From a virus (lineage: Duplodnaviria > Caudoviricetes), in the IMG/VR virus record IMGVR_UViG_3300028840_000792, positions 1-51,203 of that record: a DNA stretch of 51,203 nucleotides. One strand, written 5' to 3'. Both the position numbers and the translations under genes were made by a program. The stretch's first letter is position 1. Each line of letters begins with the position of its first letter. Positions 25,634-44,629 of this stretch are shown here, one piece after another. The notes below the pieces were generated by a model that did not search any database, was not told the DNA's origin, and worked only from the letters and a program-made list of their open reading frames with translations.

Positions 25634-27671
25634 AAACCTAACAACATTCAAGCAACACGGATTCATATACAAGGGTGAATCAGGCACTCAAGTGTATGGT
25701 CATTCAGTGTTCAGTGGTAAGGATAACTTCTGGATAAATCCTGATACAAAAATGTGGGACTGTAAAAACACTGGTGAATCAGGTGGATTTCAGCAGTTTC
25801 TAAAACGTGTTCATAACATGTCTCTTGACCACATTAAGGGTGAGAGACTTGGGTGGTTAAAAAAGAAGAGGGGCTTTTTAAGAGCTACAGTAAAACATCA
25901 CCAAGTTGGTTTTAATCCACATAATGATACGTATCTTATTCCAGTGTATGATGGTAAAGAAGATACTATGTGGGACTTGCGTATATACAATCCAAAGCTT
26001 AAGAAGATAATGGGCACTGCTGGATGCAATGTAGGTTTATACGGATGGGAGGAACTACAGAAATTTAAGAATGTTTGGGTTGTTGAAGGTGAGTGGGATA
26101 AGATGGCGATGTGGGAAATACTATATCGTACTGATAGATTGAAGGATGAAACTGTTGTTGCTGTTCCTGGTGCTAATACATTCAAGTCTGACTGGTGCCA
26201 GTTGTTCAAAGAAAAGAATGTTACTGTTGTTTATGACCACGATCTTCCAAAATCTGTAGGAGGAGTTGTTAGACCTGGAGCCGGACCAGCTGGAACAGTC
26301 AAGGTATACAAGGCACTTAAAAATATTTGCAAGTCAATCAAGTTTGTTAACTGGCCTGAAGATTTATCTGATGGTTACGATGTAAATGATTTACTGCGTG
26401 ATGTAAGAAATCATAAGAGATGTTATGACAAACTTGTAAGTTATTCTAGTCGTAATATACCAATTGAAGAACAGTATCTCAATGAAGTACTTGAAGAGAA
26501 TAAGACTGATGAGGAAATATTTGTAGGAGAATTTATTAAACCGGAAGATGTATACAAGGAATATCAAAAATGGTTTTATTTACCAGACACGACTGTGATT
26601 GATGTAGTATATGGAACTATAATTGCTAATCGTCTTGAGGGGGATCCTCTTTGGTTGTTTTTAATCGCGCCTTCAGGCGCCACTAAGACTGAAATATGTC
26701 TTAGTATATCGGAGGCACCCAGAGTGGTGTCTGTCACAACCATGACTCCGCATAGCCTGGTTTCCGGAGCCAATTTTGCTGGAGGAGGGGATCCCTCTCT
26801 CATTCCTTTGCTTGATGGTAAGGTTCTTATCATTAAAGACTTCACTACAATACTTAACATGAATAGCACAGCACGTGATGAAATTTTTGGTATACTTCGT
26901 GATGCGTACGATGGTAAGATTGAAAAGATGTTTGGCAACGGAGTATTTAGAAGTTATCTTTCTAAATTCGGAATCGTAGCGGGAGTGACGCCCGCTATCG
27001 AACTGTATATAACTGGTAACACTGCATTTGGTGAAAGATTTCTTGGGTACAAGATACCTGTATCAACTTCTCATAAAGAACGTATACATTATCTCAAACA
27101 GGCAATGAAGAATGTAAACAAAGAAGATAAGTTGAGGGAAGGTCTTAGGGAATTCGGTAAGAAAGTTTTATCATATAACTATACAAAAAATTCTGTTGAT
27201 ATACCAGAATCTCTTACAAACAAGTTGATGGTTCTTGCTGAATGGACAGCAACAATGAGGGGAACAGTAACACGAGACCAATATTCAAAAGAAGTGATAG
27301 CAAAACCATTTATTGAATTAGCTACTCGTTTAGTTAAGCAGTACAAAAAGTTTTTAATAGGCACAACTCTATTCAGAGGAAAAAGAAAAGCAACACGTAA
27401 TGAGTACTCTATAATAAGAGACATAGCAGTCAGCTCAGTGGCAAATGACTTGAATGATATTACAAAATACCTATACGAACGTGGTTTGGGAAAGTGGTCT
27501 GAGTATAAACAGATACTCGAAGCAACAGGTCTTCCTTCAGAGAACCTACGACGAAAAATTGAAAACTTAATTCTACTTAAAGTAATTCATAAACAAAAAA
27601 CCGGTATGACACTATACTATTCAATTGATGAGGAGATACATGACCTCATTAAGACAGGAGGTATATACTAA
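25611..27671 (+). CDS. Primase-helicase fusion (TOPRIM plus MCM-like AAA+ plus wHTH)
   Basis: TOPRIM VVEGEWD, VPGA, YDHD and D.ND; P-loop APSGATKT, IIKDFTT, LRDAYDG and GERFL; C-terminal HTH-like segment. Confidence 0.82.
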   Translation: MSELASHKNLTTFKQHGFIYKGESGTQVYGHSVFSGKDNFWINPDTKMWDCKNTGESGGFQQFLKRVHNMSLDHIKGERLGWLKKKRGFLRATVKHHQVGFNPHNDTYLIPVYDGKEDTMWDLRIYNPKLKKIMGTAGCNVGLYGWEELQKFKNVWVVEGEWDKMAMWEILYRTDRLKDETVVAVPGANTFKSDWCQLFKEKNVTVVYDHDLPKSVGGVVRPGAGPAGTVKVYKALKNICKSIKFVNWPEDLSDGYDVNDLLRDVRNHKRCYDKLVSYSSRNIPIEEQYLNEVLEENKTDEEIFVGEFIKPEDVYKEYQKWFYLPDTTVIDVVYGTIIANRLEGDPLWLFLIAPSGATKTEICLSISEAPRVVSVTTMTPHSLVSGANFAGGGDPSLIPLLDGKVLIIKDFTTILNMNSTARDEIFGILRDAYDGKIEKMFGNGVFRSYLSKFGIVAGVTPAIELYITGNTAFGERFLGYKIPVSTSHKERIHYLKQAMKNVNKEDKLREGLREFGKKVLSYNYTKNSVDIPESLTNKLMVLAEWTATMRGTVTRDQYSKEVIAKPFIELATRLVKQYKKFLIGTTLFRGKRKATRNEYSIIRDIAVSSVANDLNDITKYLYERGLGKWSEYKQILEATGLPSENLRRKIENLILLKVIHKQKTGMTLYYSIDEEIHDLIKTGGIY

Positions 27672-27982
27672 TGTTGACACAAATGTTTGAACTGCAAGAA
27701 AGTTTACAAGAAGTAGTTGGGAGTGACGTTCAGTCTCAAGAATTCAGAAACATGACAGCTCTGGCTCTTTCATCCGAGATACACGAAGCTCTTGGTGAAA
27801 CACCATGGAAACCCTGGAAGAAGAAACAGAAACTAAACGTGGAAAGATACAAGGGTGAGATTGTTGACTGTTGGGCTTTCCTTATTAATCTTACATTTCC
27901 AGTGATGGACGCTAAGGAATTGTTCGATAGATTTGTAGAGAAAAATGAAATCAATGTACGAAGACAAATGACTGGGTATTGA
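27671..27982 (+). CDS. Dimeric all-alpha dUTPase/dCTPase (MazG superfamily)
   Basis: E..E...E.PWKPWK...E.VD..F and EKNEIN..RQ..GY motifs. Confidence 0.82.
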   Translation: MLTQMFELQESLQEVVGSDVQSQEFRNMTALALSSEIHEALGETPWKPWKKKQKLNVERYKGEIVDCWAFLINLTFPVMDAKELFDRFVEKNEINVRRQMTGY

Positions 27983-28342: not shown

Positions 28343-28776
28343 AGATAGTTGCTTTCTTACAGAACTGTTGGTTTCCACCAGGAACTAGTCTTTATCATAT
28401 TCGTAGGTATCTTATCAATGACGATTTTAGGAGAAAGGTTTTAAAAAAGGGATGGTCAGGTAAGAGATTGATGAACGCATTCGGTGAAGAATTGTTTGAT
28501 AAAATTATTTGGGACAATGCTTCACTTGAAGTTGGAGCTACGCCAGGTCATCGTGCTGATGCTGACAGAAACCATATTGCTAATGTTATATACAATCACA
28601 GTCCTGATTTAATATTGACATTCGGTACAGTTGCTAGAGACGCTGTACGGATAGTTAACAGGACGTGTGGGGATGGGGCATGTGTACTATCAACTAAACA
28701 CCCAAATGCAAGAGGATTTACAAACGAAGAACTGTCTCATTTTGTCAAACAAGTAAAGGAGTGGATAAATGAATAA
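28339..28776 (+). CDS. Uracil-DNA glycosylase superfamily fold protein
   Basis: LQN.W (motif-1-like), SGKRL, WDNAS, PDLILTFG..A and HPNAR (motif-2-like). Confidence 0.65.
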   Translation: MKIVAFLQNCWFPPGTSLYHIRRYLINDDFRRKVLKKGWSGKRLMNAFGEELFDKIIWDNASLEVGATPGHRADADRNHIANVIYNHSPDLILTFGTVARDAVRIVNRTCGDGACVLSTKHPNARGFTNEELSHFVKQVKEWINE

Positions 28777-29203
28777 TGCATACATCGCGTCCGGCTGGTT
28801 CAATCCTGACCAGGCAGAGGATTTAGGTTTGATTAAGGGATGTCTCAAGGCTTATGGCATAAATTTCTTCAGCCCTAAGGATGAATGCCTGTGTCCTCCT
28901 GATGCTCCTGAGGAAGACAAGATTCATACATTCAGACTCAATCTTAGAGCGATTGAAAACGCAGACTTCATTGTATGTAATACACGCAACAAGGATATGG
29001 GTTCTATCTTTGAAGCTGGTTACGCATACAAGTGTAAAAAACCAATAATCTATTTCTGTCGAGGACTTCAGGGACAATTCAACTTAATGTTGGCCAAGTC
29101 AGGAATCGCAGTTGCGACAGATTCTCACAAGCTGGCTTACTATGTAGGTCAGTTAAAAATGAATGCTAAATTTTCAGAACCGTACACGGAGGATATACAA
29201 TGA
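28769..29203 (+). CDS. Nucleoside 2-deoxyribosyltransferase / MilB-DNPH1-like N-glycosidase
   Basis: YIASGWF, FFSP, AIENAD and D.GSIFEAGYAY..KPII (catalytic Glu motif). Confidence 0.85.
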   Translation: MNNAYIASGWFNPDQAEDLGLIKGCLKAYGINFFSPKDECLCPPDAPEEDKIHTFRLNLRAIENADFIVCNTRNKDMGSIFEAGYAYKCKKPIIYFCRGLQGQFNLMLAKSGIAVATDSHKLAYYVGQLKMNAKFSEPYTEDIQ

Positions 29204-29709
29204 CAAGAACTCAAATGATGAAGTTTCTATCTGAGACTTATAAGCTTAAGACTCTGATAAGATACAACAACACTCCGAGACTGGTCAAAGAATCAGTTGC
29301 TGAACACTCATATTTTGTTACATTAACAGTTTACAAACTGTATGATGTATATAAGTTCGATCTTCTCATCGCGTTAAAAATGGCTTTGTTCCATGATGTA
29401 CCTGAAATATACTTGTCTGACATGCCAAATAACACAAAGATTACATTTCCAGAGATCGCAGCAGCTGTCAAGAATAGTTATCCATCTGCCTCAGATATGT
29501 TAGACCCTACAATGACTCCTCTTATTGATGACTATGAGAACCAAAAAACTCTTGAAGCTAAGATAGTAAAGTTAGCTGATATACTTTCTATACTTCAATA
29601 TACAAGACAGGAAGTCAAGCTCGGAAATCAGTACATGAAAACGATATATGATGGCACTCAAAAAATCGCTAACAAGATTTACAAACAACTTGAGGAATAT
29701 CAGAGATGA
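29200..29709 (+). CDS. HD-domain deoxynucleotide hydrolase (YfbR/DatZ-like)
   Basis: RY......ESVAEHS, ALFHD..E...SD.P and IVKLAD motifs. Confidence 0.88.
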   Translation: MTRTQMMKFLSETYKLKTLIRYNNTPRLVKESVAEHSYFVTLTVYKLYDVYKFDLLIALKMALFHDVPEIYLSDMPNNTKITFPEIAAAVKNSYPSASDMLDPTMTPLIDDYENQKTLEAKIVKLADILSILQYTRQEVKLGNQYMKTIYDGTQKIANKIYKQLEEYQR

Positions 29710-29916: not shown

Positions 29917-30084
29917 ATGAATAAGTCAGATGAGATAAAAAAATGCCCGTTTTGCGGAGCAATACCAAAATATTATAACGGTGACTATGTTGTCCTCCAT
30001 AAAGATGATTGTTTTTTAGCGGGTGAGCAAGAGCATTGGATAGTAGGAAAGTGGATTAAAGCCTGGAACAGGAGGTCAGCATGA
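29917..30084 (+). CDS. Lar-family (restriction alleviation-like) zinc-binding protein, 55 aa (not in ORF track)
   Basis: IKKCPFCG...H...C...AWNRR signature; AGGAGG RBS. Confidence 0.72.
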   Translation: MNKSDEIKKCPFCGAIPKYYNGDYVVLHKDDCFLAGEQEHWIVGKWIKAWNRRSA

Positions 30085-30257: not shown

Positions 30258-30445
30258 GCATAAACCCTGAAATACTGAACTATACATTTCTCTTAATTTG
30301 GATGTTGGGAGCACTGGCTATCATAAGCCACTATGAACTTCAGTACAGACAGAGATGTCTGCACAACGAAAAGTGGAGTAACGGAGCAATGTGGCTTTAC
30401 GGATTTGGTGCTTTTTTATTTTTAATAATAGGAGTAATACTATGA
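30254..30445 (+). CDS. Small two-TM membrane protein
   Basis: Two hydrophobic helices; AGGAGG RBS. Confidence 0.6.
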   Translation: MSINPEILNYTFLLIWMLGALAIISHYELQYRQRCLHNEKWSNGAMWLYGFGAFLFLIIGVIL

Positions 30446-30870
30446 ATAAGATAATCTTCTTTGAAGGTGTAGACTGTGTTGGCAAGACAACAGTCATGAA
30501 GGAATTTAATAAGATAACTGACTTCAGGTATATGTGTCTTGACAGAGGCATAATCAGTTACTTCACGTATGCTGAGATATTCCAGCGTAAGGTTCTGAAG
30601 TATCCTGAATTCATGCTTCAGAGAATCGAGCCTATTTCTATAGTTGTGTATCTTTACGCTGATGAACGTGTATTGACAAAGAGAATGAAAGACACCGGCC
30701 ATCCAGACTATCCGGTTCACACTCATCTAGCCATGTTTGAAAAGAATATAGCCAACGCTGAATTAGGTGGTTTCAGAATCATCAGACAGGATACATCACT
30801 ACTTCAACCAGACAGAATAGCAGACATCATTTATCAAAAGGTTCTAGAGATATGCAACGACGACCAGTAA
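30442..30870 (+). CDS. dNMP / thymidylate kinase-like P-loop kinase
   Basis: IIFFEGVDCVGKTT, DRG..S...Y and VVYL.A....L..R motifs; AGGAG before ATG 30442. Confidence 0.85.
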   Translation: MNKIIFFEGVDCVGKTTVMKEFNKITDFRYMCLDRGIISYFTYAEIFQRKVLKYPEFMLQRIEPISIVVYLYADERVLTKRMKDTGHPDYPVHTHLAMFEKNIANAELGGFRIIRQDTSLLQPDRIADIIYQKVLEICNDDQ

Positions 30871-31097
30871 ATGTGATACACGGTAAGAAGGGCAGACGGC
30901 TTGTAGTTGTCTGTCAGTCTTGCCCACTCGATCTCAGAAATCTGAAAAGCAATCAAAAAACTTCCTGTCTGTATCTCATCGTAAAAGATAAGAAGGGAAA
31001 CCCAACGATGAAGAAGGAACAGGAGTGCCAGTGGTATGCTAAGGATTCAATACTGCGTGGAGAGTCTGGCGTTGCAAATGTCTTGTGTCTTTATTAA
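30852..31097 (+). CDS. Small Cys-rich protein upstream of the radical SAM gene
   Basis: CQSCP...C...C...C in 81 aa. Confidence 0.6.
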   Translation: MQRRPVNVIHGKKGRRLVVVCQSCPLDLRNLKSNQKTSCLYLIVKDKKGNPTMKKEQECQWYAKDSILRGESGVANVLCLY

Positions 31098-31108
31098 AGG
31101 AGGATTCC

Positions 31109-32032
31109 ATGAAGAAAGCTTATGTCGAAGTCGGTAACTCTTGTTTCTGTCACTGTGTGACGTGTGATATACTTAAGAAACCACATCCAAAAATGTCTAT
31201 AGACATATTCAGGTATGTCATAAAAGAACTTTATTCAAACGGTTTTAGAAAAATAAGACTGGCTGGCATGGAGCCACTAACGATTCTTTCTATAGACAGT
31301 TACTTAAGTGCAGTTCGTATGTTGAGGATGGAGTCTGAAATGACTACGACTCTACTGTCTCCAAACATAGGCGTGATTAATGATGTAACTATCGTTGATG
31401 ACCTGAACATCTCTCTGTCAGCGGTTGGGAAGGGAAGATACAAGTCATTCTACAAAGTAGATAAATGGAACTTGTTTGACAAGAACTTCAGATTCCTCCT
31501 GAAAGAGAGAAAGAAACCTGTCACTGTAGTGTACACCATTTCTAAAATCAATTGTGGATTCGAAGACTTTAAAGAATTTATAAGATATATCAACTCTATG
31601 CTTCATCTAAAGCATGACTTACATGTTGTCTTCTTTCCAGAGATTCGTTACGACAATCCATGGACTCAAGACATGATAGATTATGTTGAAAATTTATTTG
31701 AAGCAGCAGCATTAGACTCAGTCAGATTCAGTTATGAATATATACATGACTATACGGGTAAGTGTATACATCAGTGTTTCATACCAAGAGAGGAAGTCTA
31801 CATTAAGTGGAACTGCGATGTATATCCTTGTTGTCTGTCTGGTGGAGAAATTGGACAGCCTCTTCTTGAAGAATTATACATCGGTAATCTAGTAAAGGAT
31901 GGCACAAAGCATGTCATGGAGAGATGCGAAACATTCAGCACCAGGTATCTGGACAACCTGATATGTGATAGGTGTTCCAATAAATATGTTAATAAATTAT
32001 CCAAGTATCCATCTGAGGCTAACCAGGATTGA
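31109..32032 (+). CDS. Radical SAM enzyme with SPASM/twitch domain
   Basis: CX3CX2C (CFCHCVTC), GMEP, and C-terminal C..P...YI....DVYPCC...IGNL...CDRC; AAGGAGG before ATG 31109. Confidence 0.88.
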   Translation: MKKAYVEVGNSCFCHCVTCDILKKPHPKMSIDIFRYVIKELYSNGFRKIRLAGMEPLTILSIDSYLSAVRMLRMESEMTTTLLSPNIGVINDVTIVDDLNISLSAVGKGRYKSFYKVDKWNLFDKNFRFLLKERKKPVTVVYTISKINCGFEDFKEFIRYINSMLHLKHDLHVVFFPEIRYDNPWTQDMIDYVENLFEAAALDSVRFSYEYIHDYTGKCIHQCFIPREEVYIKWNCDVYPCCLSGGEIGQPLLEELYIGNLVKDGTKHVMERCETFSTRYLDNLICDRCSNKYVNKLSKYPSEANQD

Positions 32033-32204
32033 TACAGTAGCCGTTTAACCTATGTCAGAAGTGACTTTGTTTAAAATGTATAGGTATATATGGTCGGGTC
32101 GGATCGTCCCAAACGGCGCGATTCGATGGTCTAGACGGTATAATAATGTATAACAATGTATACGTATGTATACAATCAATAACAATTAATATAAGGAGGA
32201 AGAA

Positions 32205-33113
32205 ATGAATGATTTTCCTATGAAAGTAAGATTCGGTGAGAAGCCAGAGACTGAATGGTATACATCGGGTAGAAACTTAAGACTGGCGATGATGGACTAC
32301 CCACGTGGCGATTTTCGTTCAAGGTGTGTTGAAATGATGAAGGCTACATGGAGTGATGAGCCATTTGATAAGGCAACTATGTATGTCGACAAAGACATAA
32401 ACATCGGTAAAGAATTTCTTAACATACTTAAGATGAAGGTTCTACCCAACTCACTGGAAAGTCTGAACTTCACGTTCAGGATGGAAGGCCTGACACTCAT
32501 TGAGGTGACACACCTGCTCAGGCATCGAATGCTTAAGAGTATACATGCCCAGTGTTCTGCTGACAGGTTTCTTCAGAAGGACTCATGCTTTATTCCATCT
32601 TCTATTGTCGGAACAGAGTTTGAAAAGTCGTATAAGTCTCTGACTTATCAGTGCAAAGAGCTATACGCTAATATGATCGACTCAGGTGATGTATCTATTC
32701 TCGATGCTAGATACATACTCACCCGAAACCATCGTTACTTCTACTACTTCACCATCGATCTCAAGACAGCCATTCAGTTTATTCACCAGCGTAAGTGTAC
32801 TCAGATACAACCTGAGATGGATAACTACATGGCGCACTATATGCACGACGCTATTTCTTCCATCATACCAGAATTTAAAGATGTGGTATCGCTGGAATGT
32901 AACGAGAGGTGTGTGTATATACAGTCATCACCAGAACATTCCTCCAGGGTTTATATGCCGGATGATGTTCATTCAAAGGTTCTTCATAGGATGGAGGACA
33001 AGATGATGATATCTTCAGATGAGGCGAATTCCAGAAGGGAGAAGAATTACTATTTACACCAGAAAACTAGAAAACAGATGGGTGTAAAGTTCTGTCCTCA
33101 GGATCTCCCATAA
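32205..33113 (+). CDS. Divergent ThyX-like flavoprotein
   Basis: FTF..EG, RHR..S, DARYIL and F...R....Q.E fit the ThyX fold; several canonical substrate and folate residues differ. Confidence 0.82.
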   Translation: MNDFPMKVRFGEKPETEWYTSGRNLRLAMMDYPRGDFRSRCVEMMKATWSDEPFDKATMYVDKDINIGKEFLNILKMKVLPNSLESLNFTFRMEGLTLIEVTHLLRHRMLKSIHAQCSADRFLQKDSCFIPSSIVGTEFEKSYKSLTYQCKELYANMIDSGDVSILDARYILTRNHRYFYYFTIDLKTAIQFIHQRKCTQIQPEMDNYMAHYMHDAISSIIPEFKDVVSLECNERCVYIQSSPEHSSRVYMPDDVHSKVLHRMEDKMMISSDEANSRREKNYYLHQKTRKQMGVKFCPQDLP

Positions 33114-33342
33114 CGGTAACGATCTGACATCCGAACTGGAATACTATACCAGAAGCCGTTTAGCGCTGTCTAAGGAGTTCTTTTTCTCCTTATATTATTA
33201 TATATAAGATATTAAAATATTACCTCTACGATAGAGAGACGGCCATCCCATTCCTGGATACGTTTGTATCAGTTTTGATACAAAAGTCTTCAGAAACGGC
33301 GAAAAATGCGACTCTCCTGGTTCGTAAAATAATGAATTATTT

Positions 33343-40726: not shown

Positions 40727-43700
40727 ATGCCAGTAATGAGATGCCAGATAAATGGTAAGAAGGGATGGAAGTATGGCGCTTCAGGAAAGTGTTATACTGG
40801 ACCTGATTCCAAGTCTAAGGCTGCTGCTCAGGGTAGAGCAATAAAGGCAAGCCAGTCAAGGGGTGATGCAGCGTCTCCTGATGCTGTAATGCAGATTGAA
40901 ATGAGACGACAACAGATGGCTGGTCGTAAACCAAGAAAGTTTGTTGTACAAAAGAGACTTCCTAAGTGGCTGTTTCCTATGCCGATGGAAATGGAATATG
41001 AAGCTAAGTTAGTCAAGTACGTAGAGGCAATCGAAGGAAAGATTGAAAAGATACTTATTCCACACATACCTAGTCTTATAGAACAGAGAAACGCTTTTGT
41101 TCCTGAGTCTTCTGAAGGTAAAACTGATACACGTTCTGATGACTGGGCTGATGATGGCGAAAGACTGATGGAGTCTGTCGTCCTGTCACTGGAAGATATA
41201 CCATTCAGTAAACCAGCACTGGCTGCCGATATAGCAAACAAGACCAATGCATGGAATGATAAGGAATGGAAGAAGATTCTTAATGCTGCATTTGGTGTCG
41301 ATGTATATCAAAGGGAACCATGGCTCAACCAAGAATTAAATTCATTCTCTAAAGAGAATGTTACTCTAATCACTAAGATGGAACAGGATTTACTTGATGA
41401 TGTCAGTTCCACTCTACAAAGAAGTATTAAGCAGGGTAATTCAGCCAGTACTGTTGCTGAAGAAATAAGACAAAGAACTAACGTATCAAAATCACGTGCT
41501 AGACTTATAGCGAGAGACCAGGTAGGAAAATTAAATGGTCAATTGACTGAATTACGCCAGACTAACATAGGTGTTACACACTATCTATGGAGAGACTCTG
41601 ATGACAAGAGGGTAAGACCCACACATCAGAAGAACGATGGCAAACGGTTTTCCTGGGAAAAACCACCAGCTGGTACCGGACATCCTGGACAGGACATACA
41701 GTGCCGGTGCTGGGCTGAACCTGATTTTACACCAGTGTATCGAGAGATACAACCTGAACCTGTTGCTCCATTAATAGAAGAAGGCAAGCTTAATGATGCT
41801 CAGAAAGAATTACTGAAACAGTATGATTCTGTTCAGGCTACAGATAATTTCGTTATTGCAATGTCAATGTTTGCTCAGAGATTCGGAACTACTTCAATGT
41901 TAAGAAATTCTAGAATCATGTCTGTGTTTAATGTCAGTAAACTTAAAAAATATATTTCATTAAGAAATCTTGTCAATTTAAGTAAGTTTACAGGCTCTAA
42001 CTCCTTGGTAATTGAAAATCTTCTTAACACTGCGTTACAATCTCAGACAGGATTAAGGATACCTAAGGGTATGGTTCCAGCAGCTACCAAGATTCTTAAA
42101 GGAGTTAAAGTTTCTAAGACAGCTAGTGCATACATCGTAGGTGCAGATGAAGTTGTTGATGCTCTTGGTAAAGTTCGTAGATTTATAAAGACTAATAAGG
42201 TTTCTAAAAAGGGAGTGACGTTTAATCAAATAAAGAAAGGAAAGTTTGCTAAGCCACTGCCACCGTCAAAGACTGGCACAATAATAAGTAAAGAAAAATT
42301 GACAAAAGAAAAACGATCTAAAATTCTTGATGAAATTGGTCAAATATATTCTGATAAACTAGATACTGATAGACTTATTTTTATGAGGGATGCTATTGCT
42401 GAACCACATACTAGCGCTGTGTATATTGCTAGAGATGTGAATACTGGTATGATTAAAGGAGCTATGTCAATTGTTGATGAGAAAGATGCTTTGTATATCA
42501 GTAACTTAGGTTCTATGTTTGAAAAAGAAGCTATTGGCACTCAGTTAATTCAAGAAGTATTGTTATTAGCTAAAAAAAGAAATATTCCTGTCTGGCTTAA
42601 TTCCACACCTAATTCAGCATCTTTTTATGAATGGTTGGGTTTTAAACAACCGAAAAAAAATTATTTTGTTGCTAGAGTCAATGAACTGGATAAGATACTT
42701 GGTATAGTCGATCTTAGAATAGGTCAAGCAATTCTTCCTAAGTTTCCTCCTACAGTGACTAAACCTCCAAAACCTACAGCAGTTAAGAAAAGGAAACCTA
42801 AGGCTCCTGTTAAGCCTAAGAAAAAGATTGCTGATGTACCTGAAACACCAAAGCCATTTAAACCAGTTGAATTTGAACCATATCTTCCAGAGAAGAACAT
42901 TCATTTTGATACTGAAGTTGATATTGTACAGCATCAGAATTTAGCTAAAAATAGACAGGTTATATCTGAGTCACTGAAAGAAACATACACTCTTGAAAGG
43001 AGAAAGAGGCTTTCTAAGAGAGGTCAACAGGGTCTAATGGCTATTGAAGATGCTGCTGACAGTAAACTTTCTAGTGATATATTTGTCGCTAGAGATGCTA
43101 ACTCTGGTGATATAATCGGAGCATTGGCTGTAGATTTTGGAAAGACTGAAGGCATACAGATACATTCATTAGGGACTATCTATCCTGACGAAGCCATAGG
43201 AACTGAATTAATGGAAAGAGTTTTTTGGCATGCTAAGAATTCTAATAGATCGATTCTTGTAAGTGCTACAAAAGATTCTGTTCCATTTTATCAGAGGTAT
43301 GGCTTTAACGTAGGAAAGGTAGTCAAAGATACTGACATAAGAATGCGCTTGTTTCCTGAAGCACTTCCTTCAGCTTATGCTCGTGTTGCTACTGACATGA
43401 TGAATGCACATGGAACAATAGGTGTATTTCCAGCTGGTAATAGACCACAGATATTAAAGAAGGGTGCTGGTAACAGAGCCACTAAGGTAGCTTCTCTTGG
43501 TAATGAGATACGATACGTTTCTAGACAGGAACTGGGTATCTTTATTGATGCTAGAACAGGAACAACAATAAGTAGATTTCGTGGTGGTGATTCAGAAATA
43601 TCTATAGACGATCTTGACTTAGCTAGATTTGAAGATAACATATTCATACATAACCATTCTAATAACACATCATTCAGTCCTCCTGACTTGATTAATGCTT

Positions 43701-44629
43701 TCGCAACTAATCTTTCTAAGTCTATTGCTGTATCTCCAAAGTATACATACACAATATCTAGAAAGAGTGGTAAGAAAGAATGGGTTCCTGAAATGAATCA
43801 GGCTGAGGTTGAATCTTTTAAGAAAGAATGGCAGGACTCATTTCTTACAGAATATCGTAAGTTAAACAATAAACTTCTATCAAAACAAACATTTCTTGAC
43901 CAGGCTGATTCAGACATAATGATGGCTGAGGCTACTCACACAGTTAACAAGAAGTTTGCTAGTAAGTATGGTTTTAATTATGTTAGACATCCTCACATAG
44001 AAGTTAAAGACATACCTAAGACTAGCACTATTCCCAAGGGAACATCAGACATAACTAAGTTACGTTCAGAAGCTAAGAAGTTTAAAGACACAATAAAGAG
44101 TCAGAGATATTGGACTACAAGACAAGGTATTGATGACTATGTTCAAGATGCTGGTGAATCTGTAAATAATTATCTTCTTAATCCAGACGAGATTAGACGT
44201 AAGGCGTCTGATAAATACATAGATGAACTTGAAACAATAATAGATGGTCTTGACTTTATGTTTGATTCTCTCCCATATCCACGGTATGCTGGTGAATCAT
44301 TTCGTGGTATGAACTTTTCACCTACTCAGTTTGATGATTTTCTTGACATACTTGATGATGCTGGAAGAGATGGAACAATCTCATTTCCTACATTCGTGTC
44401 TTCAACAAGACAGTCATCTAAAGCTGTTCATTTTATGAATAGAACTAGTGGATACAATGTGTACATGACTATCAAGGGGAAGAATGGTTTCTTTATCGAT
44501 GACATATTCAGTACATTTGATGAGAAGGAAATATTGTTTAGAAGAGATACTAAATGGAAAATCTTATCAATGGAAGAACAGGATGTATACGGTAGACCTG
44601 GCTTAGTACTTGAACTGGAGGAACTATAA
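40727..44629 (+). CDS. MuF (SPP1 gp7-like) minor head protein fused to two GNAT domains, a JAB-like domain and an ADP-ribosyltransferase
   Basis: MuF: RARLIARDQ, W....D.RVR..H, HPG....CRC. Two GNAT copies: AIGT.L...FY...GF. JAB-like: HNH...SFS..D. ART: FRG...FVSST...EKEILF. Confidence 0.85.
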   Translation: MPVMRCQINGKKGWKYGASGKCYTGPDSKSKAAAQGRAIKASQSRGDAASPDAVMQIEMRRQQMAGRKPRKFVVQKRLPKWLFPMPMEMEYEAKLVKYVEAIEGKIEKILIPHIPSLIEQRNAFVPESSEGKTDTRSDDWADDGERLMESVVLSLEDIPFSKPALAADIANKTNAWNDKEWKKILNAAFGVDVYQREPWLNQELNSFSKENVTLITKMEQDLLDDVSSTLQRSIKQGNSASTVAEEIRQRTNVSKSRARLIARDQVGKLNGQLTELRQTNIGVTHYLWRDSDDKRVRPTHQKNDGKRFSWEKPPAGTGHPGQDIQCRCWAEPDFTPVYREIQPEPVAPLIEEGKLNDAQKELLKQYDSVQATDNFVIAMSMFAQRFGTTSMLRNSRIMSVFNVSKLKKYISLRNLVNLSKFTGSNSLVIENLLNTALQSQTGLRIPKGMVPAATKILKGVKVSKTASAYIVGADEVVDALGKVRRFIKTNKVSKKGVTFNQIKKGKFAKPLPPSKTGTIISKEKLTKEKRSKILDEIGQIYSDKLDTDRLIFMRDAIAEPHTSAVYIARDVNTGMIKGAMSIVDEKDALYISNLGSMFEKEAIGTQLIQEVLLLAKKRNIPVWLNSTPNSASFYEWLGFKQPKKNYFVARVNELDKILGIVDLRIGQAILPKFPPTVTKPPKPTAVKKRKPKAPVKPKKKIADVPETPKPFKPVEFEPYLPEKNIHFDTEVDIVQHQNLAKNRQVISESLKETYTLERRKRLSKRGQQGLMAIEDAADSKLSSDIFVARDANSGDIIGALAVDFGKTEGIQIHSLGTIYPDEAIGTELMERVFWHAKNSNRSILVSATKDSVPFYQRYGFNVGKVVKDTDIRMRLFPEALPSAYARVATDMMNAHGTIGVFPAGNRPQILKKGAGNRATKVASLGNEIRYVSRQELGIFIDARTGTTISRFRGGDSEISIDDLDLARFEDNIFIHNHSNNTSFSPPDLINAFATNLSKSIAVSPKYTYTISRKSGKKEWVPEMNQAEVESFKKEWQDSFLTEYRKLNNKLLSKQTFLDQADSDIMMAEATHTVNKKFASKYGFNYVRHPHIEVKDIPKTSTIPKGTSDITKLRSEAKKFKDTIKSQRYWTTRQGIDDYVQDAGESVNNYLLNPDEIRRKASDKYIDELETIIDGLDFMFDSLPYPRYAGESFRGMNFSPTQFDDFLDILDDAGRDGTISFPTFVSSTRQSSKAVHFMNRTSGYNVYMTIKGKNGFFIDDIFSTFDEKEILFRRDTKWKILSMEEQDVYGRPGLVLELEEL

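Follow-up and report, generated by a model that had tools for sequence, protein, structure and literature searches.

The 51,203-base IMG/VR virus record IMGVR_UViG_3300028840_000792 (hereafter the window, meaning the whole record) was found to carry a gene for a 302-residue relative of the flavin-dependent thymidylate synthase ThyX, at 32205..33113 on the + strand with the stop codon included. This open reading frame is real and encodes a protein of the ThyX fold, in which the loop that a neighbouring ThyX subunit lays over the reacting atoms has been rebuilt (Cys117, Ala119, Asp120). Sequence comparison places the protein in a large branch of paralogues within the ThyX (Thy1) superfamily, nearly all of whose known members come from viral or metagenomic sequence. 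We propose, with a confidence that falls just short of an even chance, that it could be a flavin enzyme that adds a one-carbon unit to a deoxyuridine nucleotide without the usual reduction, for example making 5-hydroxymethyl-deoxyuridine monophosphate (5-hydroxymethyl-dUMP) for modified DNA.

With direct terminal repeats and a completeness rating of 100%, the window is a whole phage genome; its G+C content is 38.9%, and the stretch occurs as assembled contigs in three metagenome runs. Its genes include those for tail, baseplate, portal, capsid and terminase proteins along with a replication block, inside which the ThyX-like gene lies. Since residues F4-P5-M6 are kept among homologues, the ATG at 32205 was taken as the true start rather than M6. 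Residue numbers are those of the 302-residue protein unless a ThyX enzyme is named.

Homology to ThyX and predicted fold

The ThyX-like protein was matched by the Pfam Thy1 family (PF02511) over residues 70-222 with 58.3 bits and E=1.2e-15, above the cut-off of 24.8 bits, and it scored 34.2 bits against the NCBIfam thyX equivalog TIGR02170, below the cut-off of 87.9. When a 31-sequence family alignment was compared with 15 canonical-motif ThyX sequences by hhalign, the match had a probability of 99.87% (E=8e-32). The AlphaFold2 model reached a mean predicted local distance difference test (pLDDT) value of 92.3, and the PDB matches listed at the top of a Foldseek search with this model were ThyX or PolB and no other. 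By VIA comparison, the model matched M. tuberculosis ThyX (3gwc) with a Z of 17.1 and a root-mean-square deviation of 2.6 A over 211 residues, T. maritima ThyX (1o26) with a Z of 15.7, and PolB with a Z of 15.4 and 2.6 A over 201 residues. These results bear out a preliminary description of the gene, which had called its product a ThyX homologue.

The single sequence found no match among PDB sequences by phmmer; the family profile did reach PDB ThyX chains, at E of about 0.005. The best PDB match of that profile, CroV588 (6nyr), aligned on repeated copies of an LPNSLxxLxF-like motif only and was set aside as chance similarity, as was a weak Pfam FNIP match of the ThyX-like protein to the same short motif. 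In the Pfam scan, the ThyA-fold family PF00303 was absent from the protein and from the window genome, and no DNA-binding domain was detected in the protein.

Active-site residues and alignment registers

Residues were placed against T. maritima ThyX through the HMMER alignment of the family profile to ThyX chains, with a 12-residue tag subtracted from the chain numbers. In this register, R78-H79-R80 of the RHR motif pairs with Arg106-His107-Arg108 (32520..32528, +), as is also seen directly in the sequence; Arg147 pairs with Arg169 (32709..32711, +), and Arg174 with Arg196, which lies together with Cys198 at 32790..32798 (+). The same pairings were given by hhalign, and Glu58 of ThyX is also kept. 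R74 and Q75 correspond to T102 and H103. The place of His53, which we take to be the folate-stacking residue, falls in the stretch VLPNSLES and is held by Leu80 (32442..32444, +) in the HMMER register and by Val79 in the hhalign alignment, likewise not His.

The loop after the RHR motif, Ser88-Gly-Arg90-Tyr91 in ThyX, is replaced by Cys117-Ser118-Ala119-Asp120-Arg121 (32553..32567, +). The sequence reads RHR-x8-C-S-A-D, and the canonical spacing is x7, one residue fewer. HMMER pairs S88, G89, R90 and Y91 with C117, S118, A119 and D120, and hhalign offers an alternative in which S88, R90 and Y91 pair with A119, R121 and F122. We favoured the HMMER register because distant family members show the canonical spacing in the form RHR-x7-C-S-G-D-K and because fewer gaps are needed. 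Under neither register are Ser88, Tyr91 and His53 all present. The place of Arg90 is ambiguous, being A119 by HMMER, with which the x7 spacing of distant members fits, and R121 by hhalign. The basic residue at position 121 is nearly invariant in the family and could assume the role of Arg90.

Strict conservation and a critical part in activity have been described for Ser88 and Tyr91 of ThyX, which lie beside the flavin carbinolamine, with Arg90 adjoining Tyr91 (PMC11940539). The Tyr acts as a lid that keeps solvent off uracil C5 and flavin N5, and dUMP is contacted by the loop Ser and Arg, a further Arg from the neighbouring subunit, the first Arg of RHR and the equivalent of Arg174 (PMC6514825). 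Three of the five contacts listed there for M. tuberculosis, namely Arg87, Ser105 and Arg107, correspond here to L98, C117 and A119. The same source has flavin adenine dinucleotide (FAD) held by RHR, a Ser and another subunit's Arg; by the profile alignments, this Ser becomes Asn82 and this Arg (Arg165) becomes Lys187 in the ThyX-like protein.

The hhalign match to canonical ThyX leaves out about 20 N-terminal residues and residues 235-302 (68 residues). The C-terminal extension starts with Cys232-x3-Cys236, reading C232-N-E-R-C236 (32898..32912, +), and these cysteines, like Cys198, are invariant in the 31-sequence near clade. An R-x-C ... C-x3-5-C pattern was also found in a second clade with a VRxRIG motif and in some canonical-motif ThyX proteins, and is therefore not special to the ThyX-like protein; the clade typified by the Geobacillus phage GR1 protein is without it. 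The Cys198/Cys232/Cys236 set may be an ancestral metal site of some ThyX proteins.

The residue assignments of the preliminary description were reproduced by these alignments: the retention of R78-H79-R80, R147 and R174, the change of His53 to Leu and of R74/Q75 to Thr/His, and the two extensions with their CxxxC, the last being real though shared with other ThyX proteins. A profile alignment, which it had named as the check on its manual one, restored the canonical His and Ser in neither register. Its reading of the loop as RHR-x8-C-S-A-D agrees with the sequence and the HMMER register, but the implied loss of Arg90 is uncertain given the hhalign pairing with R121. The flavin motif that it had called intact is present here as RHR; its His107 is, however, found in only 81 of the 148 non-canonical relatives described below, and Asn82 and Lys187 stand at the places of the FAD-contacting Ser and Arg.

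A non-canonical branch of the Thy1 superfamily

A word-indexed protein search returned 37 proteins at E<=0.001 including the window's own, the other 36 having 38-68% identity to it. An exhaustive profile search of cluster representatives returned 1432 at E<=1e-3, 271 at E<=1e-10 and 56 at E<=1e-30. We then aligned 182 sequences of 190-420 residues, excluding shorter fragments and longer fusions. This sample comprised the near clade, proteins from 17 of 22 IMG/VR loci that encode relatives, the GR1 protein, three phage canonical ThyX proteins and representatives among the profile matches listed. Sequences with S-x-R-[YF] following RHR were classed as canonical (20); those lacking it and at least 250 residues long formed the non-canonical set (148), and 14 shorter non-canonical rows were dropped.

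At the Ser88 place, Cys occurs in 111 of the 148 non-canonical sequences (Ser 15, Gly 11, Thr 8) and Ser in all 20 canonical ones; the Arg90 place holds Gly in 86, Ala in 40 and Arg in 11, compared to Arg in all 20; and the Tyr91 place holds Asp in 118 and Glu in 9, compared to Tyr in 19 of 20, contrasts that are partly built in because the split was made on these Ser-x-Arg-Tyr columns and that come from a sample biased by every member being a match to the family's own profile. The consistency of Cys, a small residue and an acid as the replacements is not built into the criterion, and on these alignments the combination of Cys, Gly/Ala and Asp/Glu at the ThyX Ser, Arg and Tyr places is the hallmark of the family. 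Leu80 is found in 135 of the 148 at the His53 place, which in 18 of the 20 canonical sequences is His, one column earlier. Retention among the 148 was high for Arg106 (147), Arg108 (143), Arg169 (145), Arg196 (146) and Glu85 (140), and the column of M. tuberculosis Arg87 is Arg in only 41. Within the 31-sequence near clade, T48, W49, L80, P81, C117, D120, Q195, Q202, D206 and N207 are invariant.

In a FastTree phylogeny of 168 sequences, the 20 canonical sequences and 13 intermediates formed one clade (support 0.878), and the other 135, the ThyX-like protein included, lay outside it in three visible groups: the near clade, the GR1-type clade and a clade with the motif VRxRIGVTFSQQC[ST]G[DE]. 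Relatives carry the public annotation 'FAD-dependent thymidylate synthase', and the ten clusters that were looked up had no informative name from any source. Look-alikes in the ESM Atlas were 86-97% viral. When 185,579 species genomes were scanned with patterns specific to the near clade, which distant cellular members could escape, no relative turned up. No description of the clade, its motif or its gene module was found in a full-text literature search confined to the articles themselves.

Longer forms of the family were also encountered. P0038 (551 residues) joins a weakly GT2-like N-terminal half (22.1 bits; cut-off 23.3) to a near-clade ThyX-like half, and among P0150 (700 residues) and P0065 (515 residues) there are one intein (Hint plus intein-splicing domains) and one HNH/His-Me endonuclease domain.

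Coexistence with other thymidylate synthase genes

Canonical ThyX proteins, scoring 161-182 bits and carrying GHxS and RHR-x7-S-T-R-Y, were also found in three of the 23 related records (G012, G013 and G019). The one in G013 lies 2 kb from the ThyX-like gene, in the same module. A ThyA-like gene above the cut-off was present in two records, G012 and G015.

In the GR1-type sub-clade (L007, L011, L012, L014, L015 and L017-L022), a protein of 170-300 residues with partial ThyA-fold similarity is encoded directly after the ThyX-like gene. Its PF00303 score is 53.8 bits in L012 (7006-7911) and weak elsewhere (e.g. L014:6969-7562), and these followers are mutually related by BLASTP. The window has no counterpart of them.

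A conserved nucleotide-metabolism module

Gene neighbourhoods were compared by tblastn of the window proteins against the 22 loci, of which about 16 are distinct, L004, L009/L010 and L018/L019 being near copies of others. Every one of the 22 loci has an HD phosphohydrolase gene of the 5'-deoxynucleotidase-like type beside the ThyX-like gene. In the window this HD gene lies at 29200..29709 (+) and encodes a YfbR/OxsA-like protein (Pfam YfbR-like, 65 bits; PHROG 7076 'dATP triphosphohydrolase', E=1.5e-23) whose PDB relatives are 1xx7, YfbR, HDDC2 and OxsA. A nucleoside 2-deoxyribosyltransferase-like gene (28769..29203, +; Pfam PF05014, 52 bits) was found in 21 of the 22, the remaining locus being cut at that point. 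Its product is nearer to the N-deoxyribosyltransferase 6evs, its best PDB relative (E=4e-5), than to the deoxynucleoside monophosphate hydrolase DNPH1 (E=0.34).

Other members of the module were less regular. The window encodes a thymidylate-kinase-like P-loop kinase at 30391..30870 (+), supported by PHROG 761 'thymidylate kinase' over the P-loop region only (E=1.4e-9) and by a weak TIGR00041 match; homologues were found by tblastn in 6 of the 22 loci, and weak, mostly sub-cut-off Pfam Thymidylate_kin matches in further ones. The dUTPase_2/MazG-like nucleotide pyrophosphatase at 27671..27982 (+; PF08761, 64.5 bits; PHROG 173) has homologues in 9 of the 22 loci by tblastn, plus L022 by Pfam. 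A dCMP deaminase (acting on deoxycytidine monophosphate), a supplier of dUMP, was present in 9 of 24 records. In three loci the P-loop (thymidylate-kinase-like) and deoxyribosyltransferase parts are fused (L008:2069-3046, L011:4516-5448 and L022:4358-5401), which suggests that the two act in sequence.

The slot adjoining the ThyX-like gene varies. In the window, a 315-residue radical SAM/SPASM protein with CxxxCxxC near its N-terminus is encoded directly upstream (31085..32032, +; Pfam SPASM, E=3.6e-6; weak NCBIfam radical SAM maturase and MoaA matches), and its homologues were found in none of the 22 viral loci and nowhere in the phage collection; one homologue probably shares a 12,778-base contig with the ThyX-like relative P0005. 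In L001 the slot holds a GT25 gene (33 bits) and in L003 an FkbM methyltransferase. Radical SAM, glycosyltransferase, methyltransferase and nitroreductase neighbours resemble the genes of DNA-hypermodification clusters. A TAGT glycosyltransferase match in L001 was given little weight, as it scored 23.1 bits against a cut-off of 27.5 and a profile search of the records found it in 0 of 24.

The PHROG label of the HD protein prompted us to consider a Z-genome (PurZ/MazZ/DatZ), which was rejected because PurZ (PF00709) was above the cut-off in 0 of 24 records, the window genome among them. At L012:2213-2584 we noted a dATP/dGTP diphosphohydrolase N-terminal domain (PF18909, E=6e-28), in a record where the ThyX-like gene is accompanied by a canonical ThyX and by a ThyA-like gene. 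Inside the nucleotide-metabolism block of the window, a small open reading frame at 29917-30084 weakly matches the restriction-alleviation protein Lar (PF14354, E=7e-4, sub-cut-off).

Proposed reaction and alternative explanations

Since the fold, the two RHR arginines, Arg147 and Arg174 are kept, the protein most likely still binds flavin and stacks a deoxyuridine-type pyrimidine. The preliminary description had added that it is probably not an ordinary dUMP methylase, and this became the likelier reading because of the score far below the equivalog cut-off, the replacement of Ser88, Tyr91 and His53, and the canonical ThyX that coexists in three records. The reduction or hydroxylation that it had also entertained drew no support from the gene context, and a one-carbon transfer without the final reduction would fit better. 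In the scheme we propose, the HD phosphohydrolase, deoxyribosyltransferase, kinase and pyrophosphatase would re-route deoxyribonucleotides to one pyrimidine nucleotide, in an order that we infer, and the ThyX-like enzyme would modify this nucleotide at C5. As in ThyX, reduced flavin would ferry the methylene of methylene-tetrahydrofolate to C5; water or another nucleophile could then add to the exocyclic methylene, with no reduction by the flavin, now that the Tyr lid is lost and an acidic residue gained. The product would be 5-hydroxymethyl-dUMP or a related non-thymine nucleotide, which the kinase would phosphorylate for incorporation into phage DNA. The variable neighbours may decorate it further, the radical SAM protein here and glycosyltransferase-like or methyltransferase gene products in relatives. 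Such a capture of water is reasonable on chemical grounds, as acid trapping of the ThyX reaction yields 5-hydroxymethyl-dUMP as an intermediate (PMC3498832). The logic of the module would also match that of thymidine-replacing phages such as PhiW-14, with a pyrophosphatase, a nucleotidase, a kinase and a modified-dUMP synthase (PMC5977210).

Several observations weigh against this proposal, in addition to the limits of the sample noted above. All of its chemistry, that is the product, the cofactor and the DNA modification, is inferred. The radical SAM neighbour is rare, with three homologues besides itself in 5.8 billion proteins (all with precomputed PF04055), and the glycosyltransferase evidence is weak, given that the TAGT match in L001 and the GT2 match in P0038 are sub-cut-off and that the 'glycosyltransferase' annotated near the GR1 gene is without a Pfam match. 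Most of the nucleotide- and flavin-contacting arginines are kept, and the hhalign pairing of R121 with R90 means that the phosphate clamp may be intact and that the loss of Arg90 is not certain. T. maritima S88C reportedly keeps activity, so a Cys for Ser need not alter the reaction; this mutant has been crystallised (3g4c). In addition, the ThyX-like gene is the only Thy1 match, with no ThyA above the cut-off, in 8 of 8 records rated at least 90% complete (including the window genome, G000), and the same picture is expected for a phage with one ordinary thymidylate synthase. The dUTPase, dCMP deaminase and thymidylate-kinase-like kinase are likewise ordinary partners in the synthesis of thymidine monophosphate (dTMP).

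Some of these points favour an ordinary but divergent flavin-dependent dTMP synthase, for which the HD, deoxyribosyltransferase and kinase proteins would salvage host deoxyribose into dUMP to serve an AT-rich phage genome. The window G+C of 38.9%, the ThyX fold with R106, R108, R169 and R196, the position of Arg121 in the hhalign register and the public annotation all sit well with it. We nevertheless regard it as a plausible but less likely explanation: Ser88 and Tyr91, which are critical in ThyX (PMC11940539), are replaced family-wide, as is His53; the equivalog score of 34.2 bits is far under 87.9; and a canonical ThyX kept by three of the 23 related records, adjoining or elsewhere in the genome, points to a different job for the ThyX-like protein.

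A same-fold flavoenzyme with another substrate or chemistry, such as a deoxyuridine nucleoside, dCMP, a DNA base or a C5=C6 reduction with Cys117 as proton donor, seems improbable to us. It would fit the loss of three of the five M. tuberculosis dUMP contacts (PMC6514825), including an Arg87 column that is Arg in only 41 of 148, and the conserved N- and C-terminal extensions. The constant neighbours are moreover nucleoside-level enzymes (HD and deoxyribosyltransferase), the latter closer to true nucleoside transferases than to DNPH1. The aliphatic residue at the position of His53 may also mean altered folate binding, if that histidine has the role we presume. Yet the conserved Arg169 and basic residue 121 could still hold a phosphate, Arg196 is kept and would suit uracil better than cytosine, the dCMP deaminase of 9 of 24 records points to dUMP, the scan for DNA-binding domains gave none, and the literature search found no precedent for a ThyX-fold reductase. 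Loss of the residues critical for ThyX activity (PMC11940539) together with the variable His107 of RHR could further suggest a catalytically dead relative that only binds nucleotide or flavin, for instance as a regulator or scaffold of the nucleotide module. This we consider very improbable, as the new motif set is under strong purifying conservation (the ten positions invariant in 31 sequences; Asp/Glu at 120 in 127 of 148) and the ligand-binding arginines are kept, a pattern typical of a changed rather than a decayed active site.

Comparison with known enzymes and significance

The protein is similar to the flavin-dependent thymidylate synthases of T. maritima (TM0449) and M. tuberculosis in fold, RHR arginines, Arg147, Arg174 and Glu58. 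It differs from them in His53 (Leu or Val) and, by the favoured register, in Ser88 (Cys), Arg90 (Ala) and Tyr91 (Asp), in one extra residue between RHR and the Cys, and in about 20 N-terminal and 68 C-terminal extra residues. PolB, the C5-methylase of uridine monophosphate and dUMP in polyoxin biosynthesis of Streptomyces cacaoi (4p5a, 4p5b), is a ThyX-fold protein with a non-housekeeping job. Unlike the ThyX-like protein, which matches no PDB chain by phmmer, PolB matches the canonical ThyX profile strongly (E=2.4e-25), and it still methylates.

With the ThyA-family dUMP/dCMP hydroxymethylases of SPO1, PhiW-14 and T4, the likeness would be one of pathway logic only, a one-carbon transfer diverted to a hydroxymethyl product; those enzymes work through a covalent Cys mechanism on the ThyA fold, which is unrelated, and the ThyX-like protein is without PF00303. 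The SPO1 5-hydroxymethyl-dUMP is made by a ThyA homologue (PMC3498832), and PhiW-14 encodes a dTTPase and a hydroxymethyl-dUMP synthase (PMC5977210). The latter source also hypothesises that gp130 of Bacillus phage SP-15, a divergent Thy1 protein, is a hydroxymethyluridylate synthase, with a canonical Thy1 making dTMP. We examined gp130 (413 residues) as a possible relative and set it aside: SP-15 was absent from the tblastn matches at E<=5, the family motifs were not seen by eye, and gp130 ranked 22 in a BFVD fold search with a TM (template modelling) score of 0.48.

The only cultured-phage member found was UDY80709.1 of Geobacillus phage GR1, annotated 'FAD-dependent thymidylate synthase', with 36% identity over 84% of the protein. 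It has the same type of loop (C-T-G-D-R) and the same module with deoxyribosyltransferase, HD and P-loop genes, and it belongs to an RHR-x7-Cys sub-clade without Cys198, Cys232 and Cys236. The GR1 locus also has a thioredoxin, an annotated glycosyltransferase and a nitroreductase. No paper on phage GR1 was found in the literature search.

To our knowledge, all phage makers of 5-hydroxymethyl pyrimidines for modified DNA are relatives of ThyA. A ThyX-fold counterpart, if true, would be a second, independent invention, and would offer a test of ideas on how the ThyX flavin carbinolamine is resolved. We put forward as a rather doubtful, more ambitious extension that the protein could be a flavin-dependent synthase of 5-hydroxymethyl-deoxyuridylate (or of deoxyuridylate with another C5 substituent), the first of the ThyX fold to form naturally something other than a methylated uracil nucleotide, and that with the HD, deoxyribosyltransferase and kinase proteins it could form a widespread, unseen route to thymidine replacement in the DNA of uncultured phages, followed by lineage-specific decorating enzymes (radical SAM here). 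With 271 clusters at E<=1e-10 the family is large, and it is annotated as plain thymidylate synthase; if this annotation is wrong, many phage genomes would hide an unrecognised pathway of DNA modification or nucleotide salvage, which bears on restriction evasion and sequencing bias. If dTMP is the product after all, Ser88, Tyr91 and His53 would be dispensable, a point relevant to how ThyX works and to the design of inhibitors.

Flanking sequence and an injected-protein candidate

A Shine-Dalgarno sequence, AAGGAGG, lies at 32193..32199 (+), five bases ahead of the ATG, in agreement with the strong ribosome-binding site noted in the preliminary description. The regulatory region that it had ascribed to the gene was recovered in part: a spacer of 172 bases with a local repeat (32033..32204, +; repeat family D1) precedes the gene, but a consensus scan of this spacer found no sigma-70-like promoter site. 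The spacer contains four 18-mers of the AATGTATA type (32075-32172), spaced about 10 bases apart. Exact copies of AATGTATA number nine in the window compared to 2.9 expected window-wide, three of the nine being in the spacer, and these repeats may be bound by a regulator of the phage. Rfam gave no match around the ThyX-like gene. A terminator-like hairpin of seven pairs followed by a T-rich tail lies downstream of it at 33171..33192 (+), as a consensus match only.

Elsewhere in the window, the region 40727-44629 after the portal gene encodes a 1300-residue protein in which a Mu F-like head domain is joined to GNAT acetyltransferase domains and, at the C-terminus, to a domain of the ADP-ribosyltransferase exoenzyme type (PF03496, 32.7 bits). 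Its make-up suggests a multi-enzyme protein that is packaged in the head and injected.

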